Assembly: GCF_057098645.1 (NCBI RefSeq)
Contig: NZ_CM169472.1
Strand: one strand, 5' to 3'
DNA length: 64,000 nt
Of this stretch, positions 4,699 to 58,017 are shown piece by piece (the first letter of the stretch is position 1; each line of letters begins with the position of its first letter). A program made the translations under genes and the position numbers. The notes beneath the pieces were generated by a model. That model ran no database searches, had not been told where the DNA came from, and saw only the letters and a list, made by a program, of their open reading frames with translations.

Positions 4699-5244
<546 letters not shown>

Positions 5245-5253
5245 GAGAATTGC

Positions 5254-6045
5254 ATGAGCAGTAACTTCAGACATCAACTATTGAGTCTGTCGTTACTGGT
5301 TGGTATAGCGGCCCCCTGGGCCGCTTTTGCTCAGGCACCAATCAGTAGTGTCGGCTCAGGCTCGGTCGAAGACCGCGTCACTCAACTTGAGCGTATTTCT
5401 AATGCTCACAGCCAGCTTTTAACCCAACTCCAGCAACAACTCTCTGATAATCAATCCGATATTGATTCCCTGCGTGGTCAGATTCAGGAAAATCAGTATC
5501 AACTGAATCAGGTCGTGGAGCGGCAAAAGCAGATCCTGTTGCAGATCGACAGCCTCAGCAGCGGTGGTGCAGCGGCGCAATCAACCAGCGGTGATCAAAG
5601 CGGTGCGGCGGCATCAACGACGCCGACAGCTGATGCTGGTACTGCGAATGCTGGCGCGCCGGTGAAAAGCGGTGATGCAAACACGGATTACAATGCAGCT
5701 ATTGCGCTGGTGCAGGATAAATCCCGCCAGGATGACGCAATGGTGGCATTTCAGAATTTCATCAAAAATTACCCTGATTCAACTTACCTGCCAAACGCCA
5801 ATTATTGGCTGGGTCAGTTAAACTACAACAAGGGTAAAAAAGATGATGCGGCGTACTATTTTGCTTCGGTAGTGAAAAACTATCCGAAGTCACCAAAGGC
5901 TGCAGATGCGATGTTTAAAGTCGGCGTCATCATGCAGGACAAAGGTGACACCGCAAAAGCGAAAGCCGTATACCAGCAGGTTATCAGTAAATACCCTGGT
6001 ACTGATGGCGCTAAACAGGCGCAAAAACGTCTGAACGCGATGTAA
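5254..6045 (+). CDS. cpoB: CpoB (YbgF), TPR-containing cell-division coordinator
   Basis: 263 aa, signal peptide, coiled-coil then TPR-like C-terminus; last gene of tol-pal. Confidence 0.9.
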   Translation: MSSNFRHQLLSLSLLVGIAAPWAAFAQAPISSVGSGSVEDRVTQLERISNAHSQLLTQLQQQLSDNQSDIDSLRGQIQENQYQLNQVVERQKQILLQIDSLSSGGAAAQSTSGDQSGAAASTTPTADAGTANAGAPVKSGDANTDYNAAIALVQDKSRQDDAMVAFQNFIKNYPDSTYLPNANYWLGQLNYNKGKKDDAAYYFASVVKNYPKSPKAADAMFKVGVIMQDKGDTAKAKAVYQQVISKYPGTDGAKQAQKRLNAM

Positions 6046-6209
6046 TGCATAACACACGACCAGAAGTCGCATTATTTCTGGTCGTGTCGTGCGAATCATA
6101 AGCAGTTGAGTGATCTACATCGAAATTTTTGTTGCGCTCAAGTCTGAAATCAGTAATATATGCCGCCGTTGCCACGGGATATCAAACAAACCGAAAGCAA
6201 CGAAAAAGT

Positions 6210-6285
6210 GGGTCGTTAGCTCAGTTGGTAGAGCAGTTGACTTTTAATCAATTGGTCGCAGGTTCGAATCCTGCACGACCCACCA
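6210..6285 (+). tRNA. lysT: tRNA-Lys (anticodon UUU)
   Basis: GGGTCGTTAGCTCAGTTGGTAGAGCAGTTGACTTTTAATCAATTGGTCGCAGGTTCGAATCCTGCACGACCCACCA; cloverleaf with encoded CCA. Confidence 0.9.
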
Positions 6286-6320
6286 CTAACCTAGTTAGTT
6301 GTAGTATCCAGCGTAGTATC

Positions 6321-6396
6321 GGGTGATTAGCTCAGCTGGGAGAGCACCTCCCTTACAAGGAGGGGGTCGGCGGTTCGATCCCGTCATCACCCACCA
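6321..6396 (+). tRNA. valT: tRNA-Val (anticodon UAC)
   Basis: GGGTGATTAGCTCAGCTGGGAGAGCACCTCCCTTACAAGGAGGGGGTCGGCGGTTCGATCCCGTCATCACCCACCA. Confidence 0.9.
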
Positions 6397-6398
6397 CC

Positions 6399-6474
6399 GG
6401 GTCGTTAGCTCAGTTGGTAGAGCAGTTGACTTTTAATCAATTGGTCGCAGGTTCGAATCCTGCACGACCCACCA
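6399..6474 (+). tRNA. lysW: tRNA-Lys (UUU)
   Basis: Identical 76-nt tRNA-Lys unit, 2 nt after valT. Confidence 0.9.
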
Positions 6475-6525
6475 CTAATTACGGTGGGTTCGGTGGAAGT
6501 AGTTTGTAGTATCCAGCGCAGTATC

Positions 6526-6601
6526 GGGTGATTAGCTCAGCTGGGAGAGCACCTCCCTTACAAGGAGGGGGTCGGCGGTTCGATCCCGTCATCACCCACC
6601 A
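6526..6601 (+). tRNA. valZ: tRNA-Val (UAC)
   Basis: Identical 76-nt tRNA-Val unit. Confidence 0.9.
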
Positions 6602-6604
6602 CTC

Positions 6605-6680
6605 GGGTCGTTAGCTCAGTTGGTAGAGCAGTTGACTTTTAATCAATTGGTCGCAGGTTCGAATCCTGCACGACCCACCA
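6605..6680 (+). tRNA. lysY: tRNA-Lys (UUU)
   Basis: Identical 76-nt tRNA-Lys unit. Confidence 0.9.
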
Positions 6681-6733
6681 ATTTTAACATCAAACTCAGA
6701 TGTTAAGCGTGAAGGATAACGTTGCGCCAGCAA

Positions 6734-6778
6734 CGGCCCGTAGGGCGAGCGAAGCGAGTCATCCTGCACGACCCACCA
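6734..6778 (+). repeat. tRNA-Lys 3-prime-end remnant repeat, copy 1
   Basis: CGGCCCGTAGGGCGAGCGAAGCGAGTCATCCTGCACGACCCACCA ends in the last 17 nt of tRNA-Lys; near-identical copy at 7123..7166. Confidence 0.6.
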
Positions 6779-6826
6779 ATCTTAAAGATTGGCCCCGAGT
6801 AAAAATCTTTCAGGTAACACCCGTAT

Positions 6827-6902
6827 GGGTCGTTAGCTCAGTTGGTAGAGCAGTTGACTTTTAATCAATTGGTCGCAGGTTCGAATCCTGCACGACCCAC
6901 CA
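6827..6902 (+). tRNA. lysZ: tRNA-Lys (UUU)
   Basis: Identical 76-nt tRNA-Lys unit. Confidence 0.9.
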
Positions 6903-6935
6903 TCCTGAATGATTAAAGCAGCATAATCCCGCAAG

Positions 6936-7011
6936 GGGTCGTTAGCTCAGTTGGTAGAGCAGTTGACTTTTAATCAATTGGTCGCAGGTTCGAATCCTGC
7001 ACGACCCACCA
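6936..7011 (+). tRNA. lysQ: tRNA-Lys (UUU)
   Basis: Identical 76-nt tRNA-Lys unit, last of the array. Confidence 0.9.
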
Positions 7012-7015
7012 ATGT

Positions 7016-7043
7016 AAAAAAGCGCCCTAAAGGCGCTTTTTTG
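7016..7043 (+). terminator. Intrinsic terminator after lysQ
   Basis: aaaaagcgcc-ctaa-aggcgc followed by TTTTTT. Confidence 0.75.
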
Positions 7044-7122
7044 CTATCTGCGATACTCAAAGATTCGAACCTGCAGCAGGTTTGAGTTGAGCGCAGCGAA
7101 ACAACGGAGCCGCTCGCGGCGA

Positions 7123-7166
7123 CGGCCCGAAGGGCGAGCGAAGCGAGTCATCCTGCACGACCCACC
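7123..7166 (+). repeat. tRNA-Lys 3-prime-end remnant repeat, copy 2
   Basis: CGGCCCGAAGGGCGAGCGAAGCGAGTCATCCTGCACGACCCACC; followed by a second copy of the terminator. Confidence 0.6.
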
Positions 7167-7172
7167 CGTGTT

Positions 7173-7199
7173 AAAAGGCGCCCTAAAGGCGCTTTTTTG
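7173..7199 (+). terminator. Second copy of the tRNA-operon intrinsic terminator
   Basis: aaaaggcgccctaaaggcgctttttt, same hairpin as 7016..7043. Confidence 0.7.
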
Positions 7200-7444
7200 C
7201 TATTCAGGCATCTCTCAATTTCAATTCTTAACCCTGATGAAATACTCCGCGCTTGCTGCGTAAATAACTTTACGTCGGAGGAATAAGATGCAAAGAGTGG
7301 CATTCGGCATCTCATACGTAATTCGAGTGACTTTTCCCCACCATTCGACTATCTTGTTTAGCATATAAAACAAATTACACCGATAACAGCGAATATGACG
7401 CTTATGTCGGTTTTAACGTTAAGCCTGTAAAACGAGATGGTAAG

Positions 7445-8488
7445 ATGAGCGTGATGTTTGATCCAGACACGGCGATTTATCCTTTCCCCCCGAAGCCGAC
7501 GCCGTTAAGCATTGATGAAAAAGCGTATTACCGCGAGAAGATAAAACGTCTGCTAAAAGAACGTAATGCGGTGATGGTTGCCCATTACTATACCGATCCC
7601 GAAATTCAACAACTGGCAGAAGAAACCGGTGGCTGTATTTCTGATTCTTTGGAAATGGCGCGCTTCGGTGCAAAGCATCCCGCTTCTACGTTGTTAGTCG
7701 CTGGGGTGAGATTTATGGGAGAAACCGCCAAAATTCTCAGTCCGGAAAAAACAATTCTGATGCCGACACTTCAGGCTGAGTGTTCACTGGATCTCGGCTG
7801 CCCTGTTGAAGAATTTAACGCATTTTGCGATGCCCATCCCGATCGTACTGTCGTCGTCTACGCCAACACTTCTGCTGCGGTAAAAGCGCGCGCAGATTGG
7901 GTGGTAACTTCAAGCATTGCCGTCGAACTTATTGATCATCTTGATAGTTTGGGTGAAAAAATCATCTGGGCACCCGACAAACATCTGGGGCGTTACGTGC
8001 AAAAACAGACGGGCGCAGACATTTTATGCTGGCAGGGTGCTTGCATTGTGCATGATGAATTTAAGACTCAGGCGTTAACCCGCTTGCAAGAAGAATACCC
8101 GGATGCTGCCATACTGGTGCATCCAGAATCACCACAAGCTATTGTCGATATGGCGGATGCGGTCGGTTCCACCAGTCAACTGATCGCTGCTGCAAAAACA
8201 TTGCCACATCAGCGGCTTATCGTGGCAACCGATCGGAGTATTTTCTACAAAATGCAGCAGGCGGTGCCAGATAAAGAGTTACTGGAAGCACCAACCGCAG
8301 GTGAGGGTGCAACCTGCCGCAGCTGCGCGCATTGTCCGTGGATGGCCATGAATGGCCTTCAGGCCATCGCAGAGGCATTAGAACAGGAAGGAAGCAATCA
8401 CGAGGTTCATGTTGATGAAAGGCTGCGAGAGAGGGCGCTGGTGCCGCTCAATCGTATGCTGGATTTTGCGGCTACACTACGTGGATAA
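7445..8488 (+). CDS. nadA: Quinolinate synthase NadA
   Basis: 347 aa, [37 protein letters not shown]... Confidence 0.95.
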
Positions 8489-38092: not shown

Positions 38093-38225
38093 TTTTTGGG
38101 ACTCCTGGCTGATTAAGTATGTCGATAAGGCGTTTCCATCCGTCACGTAATTTACGGGTGATTCGTTCAAGTAAAGATTCGGAAGGGCAGCCAGCAACAG
38201 GCCACCCTGCAATGGCATATTGCAT
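38061..38225 (-). CDS. cIII: Lambda cIII (FtsH inhibitor)
   Basis: 54-aa ORF beginning MQYAIAGWPVAGCPSESLLER, overlapping kil by 32 nt as in lambda; below the ORF-track cutoff. Confidence 0.85.
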   Translation of the reverse strand: MQYAIAGWPVAGCPSESLLERITRKLRDGWKRLIDILNQPGVPKNGSNNYGYPD

Positions 38226-38297
38226 GGTGTGCTCCTTATTTATACATAACGAAAAACGCCTCGAGTGAAGCGTAATTGGTATGCGGTAACGCCGCGC

Positions 38298-41617: not shown

Positions 41618-42508
41618 TCAGGCTGCCAGATCATTATTTCCGATGGAAGCATAATAAGCTTTTTCTGCTTCTGCCGGAGGAATATGGCCCAGCCTTTCCA
41701 GCAATCGTCGATTGTTATACCAGTCCACCCACGTGAGTGTGGCCAGTTCCACTTCTGCACGGTTTTTCCAGCTCTTACGGTGTATTACCTCCGCTTTGTA
41801 AAGACCATTGATGCTCTCCGCCATCGCGTTGTCATACGAGTCGCCAGTACTCCCTGTTGATGCCAGTAATCCGGCTTCCTTAAGCCGCTGCGTGTAGGCC
41901 AGCGATACATACTGAGAACCTTTATCACTGTGATGGATTGTGCCGGACGGCCGACGGGCCCACAACGCCTGCTCCAGTGCATCCAGCACGAATGTTGTTT
42001 CCATGGATGATGAGACCTGCCATCCCACGATGTATCCGGCGAACACATCAATGATGAACGCCACATAAACGAAGCCCCGCCATGTGCTGACGTAAGTAAA
42101 ATCAGCCACCCACAGCTGGTCAGGTCGTTCTGCCACGAACTGACGGTTTACGCGGTCGCCTGCGGCAACGGCTTTCCGGCTGATGGTCGTACGGACCTTT
42201 TTACCCCGGAGAACACCGGCAAGTCCCATAACTGCCATGAGACGTGCCACAGTGCATCTGGCCACTCTGATACCTTCCCGTAACAACTGACGCCAGACTT
42301 TACGCACACCGTATACCTGGTGATTTTCATCGTATACGCGCTGTATCTCTTTCTTCAGCCAGTCATCGTGCTGCGCACGGGCACTGCGTTTATCCGGATG
42401 ATGTCGCTGTTGCTGACAGTGGTAATACGTTGACGGGGCAATATGCAGTTCGCTGCATAGCGGTCCGACCCCGTACTGCTCACGCAGCTTATCCAGCAGT
42501 GGCATCAT
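41618..42508 (-). CDS. IS629-like transposase OrfB (DDE/integrase domain)
   Basis: 296-aa ORF with IS3-family DDE region ([10 protein letters not shown]...[11 protein letters not shown]). Confidence 0.85.
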
Positions 42509-42831
42509 TTTTTCCAGAGGCGGTCGAACTCCGCCTTCGCAAAATAAGCGGAAGCCTGGCGAAGGATATCGTTACTGCGGCGCAGTTCACGATTTTCACG
42601 CTCCAGCTCTTTCAGACGCTGACGTTCAGCGGTGGTGAGCCCGCCATCACCGCCCCCGGTATCCCGCTCATGCTGGCGAACCCAGACACGCAGAGTCTCC
42701 GGCGTACAGCCAATCTTTGGAGCAATGGAACAAATTGTCGCCCATTGTGAGTCATATTCATCCTGACTTTCCAGAACCATACGAATCGCCCGCTGACGGA
42801 CTTCGGGGGAAAAACGAGTATTTTTAGTCAT
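42505..42831 (-). CDS. IS629-like transposase OrfA (HTH)
   Basis: 108 aa, [50 protein letters not shown]... Confidence 0.85.
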
Positions 42832-52728: not shown

Positions 52729-53756
<1,028 letters not shown>

Positions 53757-53760
<4 letters not shown>

Positions 53761-54197
53761 TGCCACTGCTGGATAAGCTGCGTGAGCAGTACGGGGTCGG
53801 ACCGCTATGCAGCGAACTGCATATTGCCCCGTCAACGTATTACCACTGTCAGCAACAGCGACATCATCCGGATAAACGCAGTGCCCGTGCGCAGCGCGAT
53901 GACTGGCTGAAGAAAGAGATACAGCGCGTATACGATGAAAATCACAAGGTATACGGTGTGCGTAAAGTCTGGCGTCAGTTGTTACGGGAAGGTATCAGAG
54001 TGGCCAGATGCACTGTGGCACGTCTCATGGCGGTTATGGGACTTGCCGGTGTTCTCCGGGGTAAAAAGGTCCGTACGACCATCAGCCGGAAAGCCGTTGC
54101 CGCAGGCGACCGCGTAAACCGTCAGTTCGTGGCAGAACGACCTGACCAGCTGTGGGTGGCTGATTTTACTTACGTCAGCACATGGCAGGGCTTCGTG
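53757..54197 (+). pseudogene. IS629-like OrfB, N-terminal part (copy 2), interrupted by IS21-family insertion
   Basis: Matches copy-1 OrfB up to ...[14 protein letters not shown], then reads into the foreign element. Confidence 0.8.

Positions 54198-57303: not shown

Positions 57304-58017
<714 letters not shown>

Follow-up and report, generated by a model that had tools for sequence, protein, structure and literature searches.

Two extra tRNA-Lys 3' ends in the lysT operon of Escherichia coli are the ends of tRNA-linked repeats (TLR/RtT)

TLRs and related elements of stable RNA operons

tRNA-linked repeats (TLRs), described in 1978 (Egan & Landy), catalogued in 1999 (Rudd) and summarized by Stenum et al. 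2021 (PMC8144298), are defined by a 3' end of 18–19 bp identical to that of the upstream tRNA or rRNA, and Escherichia coli K-12 has 22 copies at 10 loci, with 1–5 per locus (PMC8144298). A stable RNA gene, a terminator, the element and a second terminator also follow each other at rrA, rrB and rrF, which lie between T1 and T2 of rrnA, rrnB and rrnD (PMC8144298). With the Rfam model of the family (RtT, RF00391), five matches were obtained in the K-12 lysT operon, one after each tRNA-Lys gene, four at tyrT and one at lysV. The RtT RNA is rttR of the tyrT-tyrV operon, reportedly treated by Bosl & Kersten in 1991.

In a 64,000-nt stretch of DNA (NCBI RefSeq assembly GCF_057098645.1, contig NZ_CM169472.1; hereafter the window), the lysT operon holds two additional copies of the tRNA-Lys 3' end, which the first-pass annotation had explained as scars of unequal recombination. 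Both remnants are the 3' ends of TLRs, a family already known; TLRs are ordinary for the lysT operon and the window adds nothing unexpected. Like the K-12 TLRs, the two units are placed in a tRNA operon right after a tRNA gene and have the core and a 17–18-nt tRNA-identical 3' end. They are orthologues of the third (145/146 positions identical in the lysY-lysZ spacer) and the fifth (188/192) TLR of the K-12 lysT operon, from which the window differs by the absence of the other three, by a terminal copy ending in CCACCC, and by 4 clustered changes in this copy before the second terminator.

The core and overall structure are shared with the RtT copies of tyrT, but the latter score 133–138 bits and are closed by a clean 10-bp helix (GGGGAAGGAT/ATCCTTCCCC), whereas the Lys units are divergent. 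The arrangement lysQ-terminator-TLR-terminator mirrors the 5S-T1-rrB-T2 of rrnB, and rrA, rrB and rrF share with the Lys units the core hairpins AACGTTGC-N3-GCAACG and GCCCGNAGGG as well as 18 nt copied from the 3' end of the upstream RNA, directly before the second terminator. They differ in having 5S rRNA as host and loops with CsrA-binding GGA motifs (PMC8144298). T1 and T2 of the rrn loci are moreover unlike each other, while the second terminator after lysQ is a copy of the first, and the Rfam RtT model gave no match to rrB. 3'ETS-leuZ and other tRNA-spacer RNAs are likewise processing by-products of tRNA operon transcripts, but they have no sequence or structural relation to the TLRs, and 3'ETS-leuZ is a base-pairing sponge with known targets, such as are not known for TLR-Lys.

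The two elements in the lysT operon

The operon is flanked by cpoB and nadA, and the five identical tRNA-Lys and two identical tRNA-Val genes listed in the first pass were recovered by both ARAGORN and Rfam at the same positions (Table 1), their identity being confirmed by exact-match counts. The 17-mer ATCCTGCACGACCCACC occurs 7 times in the window (0.00 expected from shuffles), namely in the five tRNA-Lys genes and at 6761–6777 and 7150–7166. The stretches 6734–6777 and 7123–7166 differ at 1 of 44 positions, and the repeat finder extended this pair to 57 nt with 91% identity (6730–6786 vs. 7119–7175). The first remnant shares 18 nt with tRNA-Lys, final A included, and the second 17 nt, as it ends in CCACCC and not CCACCA. 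The first pass had described a 45-bp unit ending in the last 17 nt of tRNA-Lys; the two extra tails were thus real, but the length of the first had to be corrected, as had the unit size, the true repeat units being ~98 nt (6681–6778) and ~124 nt (7044–7167). The proposed check of the remnants for cloverleaf folding came out negative: ARAGORN called the seven genes only, and the Rfam tRNA model had no matches in the remnants. Open reading frames in the operon are short and overlapping, with chance-level coding capacity in the 98–124 nt units; one Arg-rich frame (7087–7263) is reminiscent of the doubtful Tpr peptide of tyrT.

Table 1. Features of the lysT operon in the window (positions are those of the window).
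Feature	Position	Strand	Basis
tRNA-Lys(UUU) lysT	6210..6285	+	ARAGORN; Rfam tRNA 79.2 bits; K-12 lysT position
tRNA-Val(UAC) valT	6321..6396	+	ARAGORN, Rfam, K-12 comparison
tRNA-Lys(UUU) lysW	6399..6474	+	ARAGORN, Rfam, K-12 comparison
tRNA-Val(UAC) valZ	6526..6601	+	ARAGORN, Rfam, K-12 comparison
tRNA-Lys(UUU) lysY	6605..6680	+	ARAGORN, Rfam, K-12 comparison
Internal-type TLR / RtT-like element, most of the lysY-lysZ spacer	6681..6778	+	Rfam RF00391, K-12 match, fold
5' arm CGTGAAGGAT, pairs with the tRNA-derived tail and closes the element	6708..6717	+	MFE and centroid folds
18-nt tail = tRNA-Lys 3' end (T-loop A59 to CCA), 18/18	6761..6778	+	repeat finder, counts, tail comparison
tRNA-Lys(UUU) lysZ	6827..6902	+	ARAGORN, Rfam, K-12 comparison
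tRNA-Lys(UUU) lysQ	6936..7011	+	ARAGORN, Rfam, K-12 comparison
First intrinsic terminator	7014..7044	+	fold -19.1 kcal/mol, z -6.2, then UUUUUU
Terminal-type TLR / RtT-like element between the two terminators	7044..7167	+	Rfam RF00391, PGAP-annotated orthologues
GATTCGAACCTGC, exact reverse complement of the tRNA-Lys T arm	7062..7074	+	inverted repeats
17-nt tail = tRNA-Lys 3' end, next base C for terminal A (17/18)	7150..7166	+	counts, K-12 comparison
Second intrinsic terminator, diverged copy of the first	7170..7200	+	fold -15.0 kcal/mol, z -3.0, then UUUUUU

The internal unit begins at the base after lysY, on the same strand, and was matched by RF00391 at 6612–6778 with 54.4 bits (gathering score 45). 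It lacks the inverted T-arm and the CGAGCG hairpin of RtT, so that the Rfam model aligns the tRNA itself there. The unit folds with -32.7 kcal/mol (z -3.6) into a 5' hairpin (6683–6691 with 6699–6707) and the core hairpins ACGTTGC/GCAACG (6720–6725 with 6730–6735), GCCC/GGGC (6736–6739 with 6743–6746) and GC-GAA-GC (6749–6755), and all helices of the element are present according to both folds and alignment. In the alignment of 15 internal-type sequences, 95% of the cells are paired; in the closing helix, pairing amounts to 90% over the Lys and Arg units, and one pair has switched from UA to GC.

The terminal unit lies after lysQ and the first terminator, also on the same strand. Its RF00391 match (7042–7167, E 3e-7) reached 44.2 bits, i.e., 0.8 bits below the gathering score, while the K-12 orthologues scored 46.7 (lysQ, above gathering) and 47.3 (lysV). 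This small deficit explains why the copy escapes automatic annotation: as the first pass had stated, the remnants are outside annotated genes in the matching RefSeq record, but PGAP labels the lysQ-side orthologue "RtT sRNA" in other genomes of E. coli. The segment GATTCGAACCTGC belongs to the inverted 5' segment that long-type TLRs typically have, and aligns with its equivalents in Tyr, Pro, and Arg TLRs. The core is present in the E. coli terminal unit, but its 5' arm is degenerate (~5/10 pairs); with this arm and the lack of a final CCA in the window copy, the tRNA-like end is weakest here.

The duplication of the terminator seen in the first pass was borne out, as two strong hairpins, each with a U-run behind it, were folded. 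The second differs from the first by 4 clustered substitutions just 5' of the stem, and tRNA 3' end and terminator together form a block that occurs twice, with a period of 156 bp (6994–7047 vs. 7150–7203, 93%). The first terminator is identical in sequence to the one after K-12 lysV; the lysV and lysQ terminators were reported as identical, the first terminator being the one studied there, and the K-12 operon transcript as ~1100 nt long (PMC4176162), which is consistent with an end at the first terminator. A simple terminator scan of the + strand listed neither of the two, probably because the A-run pairs with the U-run. The first pass had also considered that a remnant could be part of a longer RNA with its own promoter; a recognized longer RNA element was indeed found, but no promoter of its own. 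The promoter scan of 5900–7600 gave no site at all, although the operon must have its promoter upstream of lysT, so its silence within the operon is weak evidence against an internal promoter.

A core shared across genera and the origin of the tails

The core recurs in ~20 genera, downstream of tRNA-Lys, Tyr, Pro, Arg and 5S rRNA, and in both window units it aligns with the TLRs of the tyrT, proK-type and argV-type loci. The tail equals the upstream 3' end in 56 units from ~20 genera, covering tRNA-Lys, Tyr, Pro(CGG), Pro(UGG), Arg(ACG) and Arg(CCG), and mirrors two lineage-specific tRNA substitutions (loci L058 and L059). The long-type alignment has 90.1% of its cells paired vs. 34–46% when the partners are slid, 17 of its pairs are changed on both sides, and its covariation score was reached by 0 of 500 shuffles. 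Judging from the covariation of the core hairpins, the RNA seems to be under some selection, which sits uneasily with an absence of function.

A TLR consists of a core of small hairpins, the 17–18-nt tail and an upstream arm complementary to the tail, by which the RNA can close into an acceptor/T-stem-like helix ending in single-stranded NCCA. In a free search for the arm-tail complement, a unit's own tail was better than the tails of other tRNAs by only ~1 pair, with a background of 8–9/13 pairs due to the ATCCT and the pyrimidine runs common to all tails; fixed-register pair counts on the alignments were used to assess the pairing in place of the free search. RNAalifold favors another pairing, of the tail with a direct copy of the T-stem. 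The complementarity of arm and tail could be a by-product of origin, i.e., of an inverted copy of the tRNA end, and not of selection.

The segment from the T loop to the 3' end is typically duplicated by tRNA-targeting integrases, and the identity boundary in the T loop (position 58/59) and the span of 18–19 bp would suit attR-like leftovers of decayed integrative elements. Several aspects of the units make such an origin extremely unlikely: their core follows six tRNA species plus 5S rRNA, unlike the targets of one site-specific integrase, and they are 98–125 nt long, often in tandem, and inside operons between functional genes. In addition, the annotated genes on either side of the operon include no integrase, and within phage and plasmid collections, the core was found nearly always on chromosome fragments or chromosome-sized records, the few exceptions being short unannotated ones of 7–121 kb.

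The occurrence of one hairpin series after 5S rRNA as well as six tRNA species, with every copy bearing the 3' end of its host and the inverted complement, raises the question of whether the core is a dispersible structured module and not a sequence specific to lysT or tyrT. Alcanivorax sp. 24 has tandem copies of a clearly related 74-nt module at 20 or more loci, and Salinicola and Alishewanella carry the module as well; an upstream tRNA with a matching tail was not found at the modules of these three. We regard this idea as speculative and rather unlikely. If it were true, an uncharacterized selfish or regulatory repeat family would include the TLRs as a domesticated or target-specific branch, and there would be a mechanism that copies the 3' end of highly transcribed stable-RNA genes.

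Strain variation, turnover and processing

Compared with K-12, the window lacks three units of 98–100 bp, each absent exactly between the 3' end of a tRNA and the 18-bp copy of that end downstream, and the spacers retained at these sites have 1 mismatch each. An arrangement invariant in all E. coli, which the first-pass annotation had named as evidence against its own reading, is not what we observed, as 14 loci showed 10 layouts, with 0, 1 or 2 terminal units, 4 to 6 tRNA-Lys and 2 to 3 tRNA-Val genes. Some strains (L007) have the block of tail and terminator in three copies, while ST131 (L013) and FDAARGOS_1302 (L010) have the operon without any TLR. A single matched place with ≥ 80% of 6100–7300 was obtained for only 885 of 5,426 genomes, which likewise speaks against an invariant arrangement. 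The 14 loci were sampled directly, as a flank-to-flank length query across all genomes broke the locus up. The lysW slot and the terminal unit were counted from match pieces in evenly spaced 60-row samples, in which the lysW-slot unit was present in ~42% and the unit after lysQ in ~43% of the genomes; 12 of 60 sampled E. coli genomes (~20%) had no lysW/lysY-type unit and 24 of 60 (~40%) had no terminal unit at lysQ or lysV. Counts at ≥ 80% coverage are upper bounds (lysT slot, at most 3,592 genomes; lysY slot, at most 4,067), as they are inflated by pieces of neighboring TLRs joined with the spacer of the slot.

That the array recombines, as the first-pass annotation had supposed, is supported by these layouts and by the precise losses of 98–100 bp, but the remnants were not created as scars within it. 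Pure scars would come from unequal crossing-over of tRNA-Lys genes and have flanks without an identity of their own. The varying numbers of both tRNA genes would fit this, and so would the tail and terminator doubled as one 156-bp block, or tripled as in L007. The sequence upstream of the tails is instead the conserved core found at tyrT, proK-type, argV-type and 5S loci in many genera, backed by compensatory changes and a curated Rfam family, and an exchange between complete tRNA genes gives whole genes, not an 18-nt end on a foreign core. The scar reading is already contradicted as the origin of the remnants, and we hold it to be very improbable.

As a further alternative, TLR-Lys could be processed to trans-acting small RNAs with a regulatory role, be it as protein sponges in the manner of RrA/B/F (Hfq, CsrA) or as RNA sponges in that of 3'ETS-leuZ. 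The core-hairpin covariation across genera would agree with this; the 5S-linked RrA/B/F undergo processing, interact with Hfq and CsrA in vitro, and become more abundant when translation is arrested (PMC8144298), and RtT RNAs were differentially expressed in Klebsiella RNA-seq (PMC4147364). We nevertheless consider such a role unlikely, as every unit is dispensable in nature (cf. the counts above and the two strains without any TLR), no stable spacer RNA was reported from wild-type K-12 (PMC4176162), InvenireSRNA gave the 19 tRNA-linked TLRs CsrA-binding scores of < 0.01, and the original claim on rtT and the stringent response was withdrawn (PMC8144298).

In our assessment, the two units are most probably best explained as a pair of TLR family members with a tRNA-like end and repeat-driven turnover. 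Family membership, anatomy, conserved structure, the agreement of tail and host 3' end and the differing presence of units among strains were demonstrated, whereas transcription, processing, lack of function and the cause of turnover are inferences. The internal unit would be transcribed within the operon precursor, and the terminal unit only if transcription passes the first terminator, as reported for rrB of rrnB. Due to its tRNA-like end, the transcript may enter the normal 3'-end machinery, with an RNase E cut just downstream and exonuclease trimming to a defined end. In K-12, Northern probes to the spacers detected few processing intermediates in the wild type; cuts by RNase E in the long spacers appeared only in the absence of RNase P activity, and RNase II and PNPase were proposed as the enzymes that take off the trailers (PMC4176162), which leaves a discrete stable TLR-Lys RNA putative. 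By itself, the RNA presumably does little or nothing that is essential. At the DNA level, the 18-bp direct repeats on both sides of each unit, together with the identical 76-bp tRNA-Lys genes, would promote precise loss, duplication and unequal exchange, and this is probably why strains differ.

For annotation, these findings mean that such stretches should be labeled as TLR / RtT-like elements, not as scars. E. coli strains carry zero to six TLRs in the lysT operon and so provide a natural deletion series, which lets the effect of TLRs on the maturation and levels of tRNA-Lys, or on terminator read-through, be tested.

Identity of the duplicated tRNA ends

The array (Table) is flanked by cpoB and nadA and is 100% identical to the corresponding region of E. 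coli O145 RM9872. The 17-mer ATCCTGCACGACCCACC occurs seven times in the window (0.00 expected from shuffles), in the five tRNA-Lys genes and at two extra sites that also have their 5' sequence in common, and a block of tRNA end plus terminator is repeated at a spacing of 156 bp, both terminator hairpins having strong predicted folds followed by a U-run. This confirms the duplicated tRNA-Lys ends and terminator reported in the first-pass annotation; copies of its 45-bp remnant unit also exist (1/44 mismatched in their 44-nt overlap), but the true units are longer.

Features of the array and other Rfam matches in the window
Feature	Position	Detail
CpoB/ybgF thermometer	5145-5283	upstream of operon; Rfam, gathering level
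tRNA genes, seven	6210-7011	5 Lys(UUU), 2 Val(UAC); ARAGORN, Rfam
RtT match	6612-6778	54.4 bits (gathering 45)
Internal unit	6681-6778	starts with 5' hairpin, 9 bp
Arm CGTGAAGGAT	6708-6717	next after 5' hairpin
Three small hairpins		3' of arm; ACGTTGC/GCAACG, GCCC/GGGC, GC-GAA-GC
Tail ATCCTGCACGACCCACCA		3' end of internal unit
Extra 17-mer copies	6761-6777, 7150-7166
Repeat around extra copies	6730-6786, 7119-7175	91% identity; repeat finder
tRNA end plus terminator	6994-7047, 7150-7203	93% identity
YrlA (Y RNA-like) match	6847-6987 (+)	44 bits (gathering 69)
RtT match	7042-7167	44.2 bits (gathering 45)
Terminal unit	7044-7167
Inverted T arm	7062-7074	exact reverse complement
TTG-start frame	7087-7263 (+)	58 codons
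Tail/terminator junction	7167-7185	4 substitutions within 12 bp
Lambda cIII thermoregulator	38180-38238	Rfam, gathering level
ALIL pseudoknots, two	42434-42550, 53715-53831	Rfam, gathering level
isrC	57745-57867	Rfam, gathering level

Rfam matches (RtT, RF00391) together with the published catalogue establish that the remnants belong to the already known tRNA-linked repeats (TLRs), with the lysT operon as their five-copy locus; what was observed holds up, but it is no new element. The K-12 lysT operon gave five RtT matches, each behind a tRNA-Lys with none of these genes skipped, lysV gave one, and tyrT-tyrV, the RtT type locus, four (133-138 bits). TLR is the literature name for these sequences, which were first sighted in 1978; a 1999 catalogue counted 22 of them in K-12, spread over ten loci with between one and five at each. 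An early stringent-response claim for rtT was later withdrawn (PMC8144298). The remnants do lie outside annotated genes in the window, where the terminal allele falls narrowly below the RtT threshold and lacks annotation, but in further E. coli genomes the post-lysQ element carries the PGAP label "RtT sRNA". ARAGORN found no cloverleaf in the remnants, which rules out tRNA pseudogenes.

The sub-threshold YrlA match across the lysZ-lysQ junction is an artefact, two neighbouring tRNA halves mimicking the YrlA tRNA-like domain. The cIII thermoregulator, ALIL (a motif linked to IS3-family frameshift sites) and isrC matches indicate that the distal window carries a lambdoid prophage as well as IS copies.

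Architecture and relatives of the units

The arm of the internal unit pairs with its tail in the predicted fold. The terminal unit is of the long form, as at tyrT: its first segment is a tRNA T-arm copy in inverted orientation, after which come a direct T-stem half, a CGAGCG-type hairpin, the core found in the internal unit and, last, the tail; its 5' arm is degenerate in E. coli. In the window this tail ends in CCACCC, and the junction substitutions (CCACCAATGTAAAAAAGC in K-12 vs CCACCCGTGTTAAAAGGC in the window) abolish the CCA and shorten the A-U extension of the second terminator; the allele is rare (only 27 records at ≥ 99% identity). The TTG-start frame through this unit, with the Arg-rich stretch SAAKQRSRSRRRPEGRAKR, is reminiscent of Tpr, the doubtful protamine-like frame within the tyrT repeat, and probably arises only because the core is rich in G+C.

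Paired cells made up 90.1% of an alignment of 29 long-type sequences (34-46% with partners slid) and 95.0% of one of 15 internal-type sequences (28-46%), a contrast inflated by drawing the structure from the same sequences. In the former, 17 pairs changed on both sides and the covariation score was reached by 0/500 shuffles; in the latter, the closing helix was paired at 90%. Pure junk is disfavoured because the hairpins covary. Arm-tail complementarity could stem from an origin as an inverted copy instead of selection. In the RNAalifold prediction the direct T-stem half is the preferred partner of the tail, hence two competing folds.

A core-pattern scan (one genome per species, with chance matches in G+C-rich genomes) placed units, among the matches listed, in Escherichia, Citrobacter, Klebsiella, Enterobacter, Pluralibacter, Superficieibacter, Siccibacter, Erwinia, Rahnella, Edwardsiella, Acerihabitans, Gilliamella and Marinobacterium. 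At least 56 units ending in ≥ 14 nt of the upstream tRNA 3' end were kept (hosts Lys, Tyr, Pro(CGG), Pro(UGG), Arg(ACG) and Arg(CCG)), most with 18-19 nt of identity, and the arm varied with the tail (Tyr GGGGAAGGAT, Lys CGTGAAGGAT, Arg(ACG) GGGAGGAT, Arg(CCG) CGCCTGGAGGG). Acceptor 3'-strand changes in tRNA-Lys of Citrobacter sp. FP75 (L058, A to C) and tRNA-Tyr of Enterobacter sp. BIGb0383 (L059, A to G) recur in the adjacent tails, a pattern suggestive of tRNA-TLR gene conversion and of concerted evolution, with the caveat that units were chosen for matching tails.

The core also occurs in units ending in the last ~16 nt of 5S rRNA in several genera (loci L130, L132, L133 (Siccibacter), L065 (Superficieibacter) and L079 (Budvicia)) and, with the same tail type, in the K-12 rrnB T1-T2 region (L137, 320-440). 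These are the rrA/rrB/rrF elements between dual rRNA terminators, that of rrnB being rrB, and the terminator-element-terminator order is common to rrnB and the lysQ and lysV ends. The RtT model does not detect these 5S-linked units, so Rfam splits one family. rrB is transcribed through T1 read-through, has a 3' end mapped 3 nt beyond the repeat, and binds Hfq and CsrA in vitro (PMC8144298). Integrase att scars are rejected on the grounds of one core at six tRNA species and 5S rRNA and of no integrase annotated among the operon's neighbours; the searched phage and plasmid collections gave no true carriage of the core, which also counts against them.

A 74-76-nt module (AAAAATTGCCGGGAGCAATTTTTAACGTTGCTGTGCGACGGCCCGCAGGGTGACCGCCATGGACGGCGGTCAT), single or in tandem pairs, was observed in Alcanivorax sp. 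24 (L081-L101; at least 31 copies in 20 loci, most without tRNA), Salinicola tamaricis (L103) and Alishewanella longhuensis (L105). Its hairpins follow the series of the TLR core, with the closest resemblance to rrB, CGGGA loop included; GGA motifs lie in its loops, and an Rfam search gave no match, with weak sub-threshold rsmX matches for the Salinicola copy.

Turnover among strains

Array architecture is not invariant in E. coli, as 14 loci fell into 10 layouts.

Layouts of the array (K, Lys; V, Val; r, TLR; T, terminator)
Layout	Genomes
KVKVKrKKTrT	window, dog isolate CUVET24-CCU25
KrVKrVKrKrKTrT	K-12, N18-04097
KVKVKrKT	O157:H7
KVKVKKKT	ST131 (L013), FDAARGOS_1302 (L010)
KVKVKVKT	ABU 83972
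KrVKVKrKKTrTrT	PRO_A-1551
KrVKVKKKT	FDAARGOS_1285
KrVKrVKrKKTrT	KCJ3K291
KrVKVKrKrKT	STB20-1, H1
KrVKVKrKKKTrT	2012C-4221

Three K-12 units are absent from the window, each precisely excised between the end of the tRNA and the 18-bp copy of that end (one mismatch in each spacer left). Samples of 60 evenly spaced rows showed the unit of the lysW slot as one full-length piece in 25/60 genomes, and any unit of that type was lacking in 12/60; the post-lysQ unit was present in 26/60, whereas a unit stood solely at lysV in 10/60 and at neither place in 24/60. An essential role is disfavoured because whole clades lack units. The first-pass annotation was partly right: recombination within the array happens, as the differing layouts attest, but the remnants do not owe their origin to it, and their conserved core, common to other loci, rules out pure recombination scars.

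These strain comparisons are direct evidence of turnover at the DNA level, which may be caused by slippage or recombination involving 18-bp direct repeats ~100 bp apart and, additionally, by unequal exchange among identical tRNA genes. At the RNA level, the tRNA-like end probably draws the same 3'-end processing as tRNA or 5S RNA, paralleling the proposal for rrB. K-12 Northerns with spacer probes revealed few intermediates in the wild type, with RNase E cleavage of the long spacers seen only when RNase P was inactive (PMC4176162), which disfavours a stable TLR product; TLR-Lys as a trans-acting sRNA is possible but unsupported. The number of tRNA genes also varies, with three Val in ABU 83972 (L011, KVKVKVK), six Lys in 2012C-4221 (L014) and four Lys in O157:H7 (L006), and tRNA-Lys(UUU) gene dosage therefore differs among lineages.
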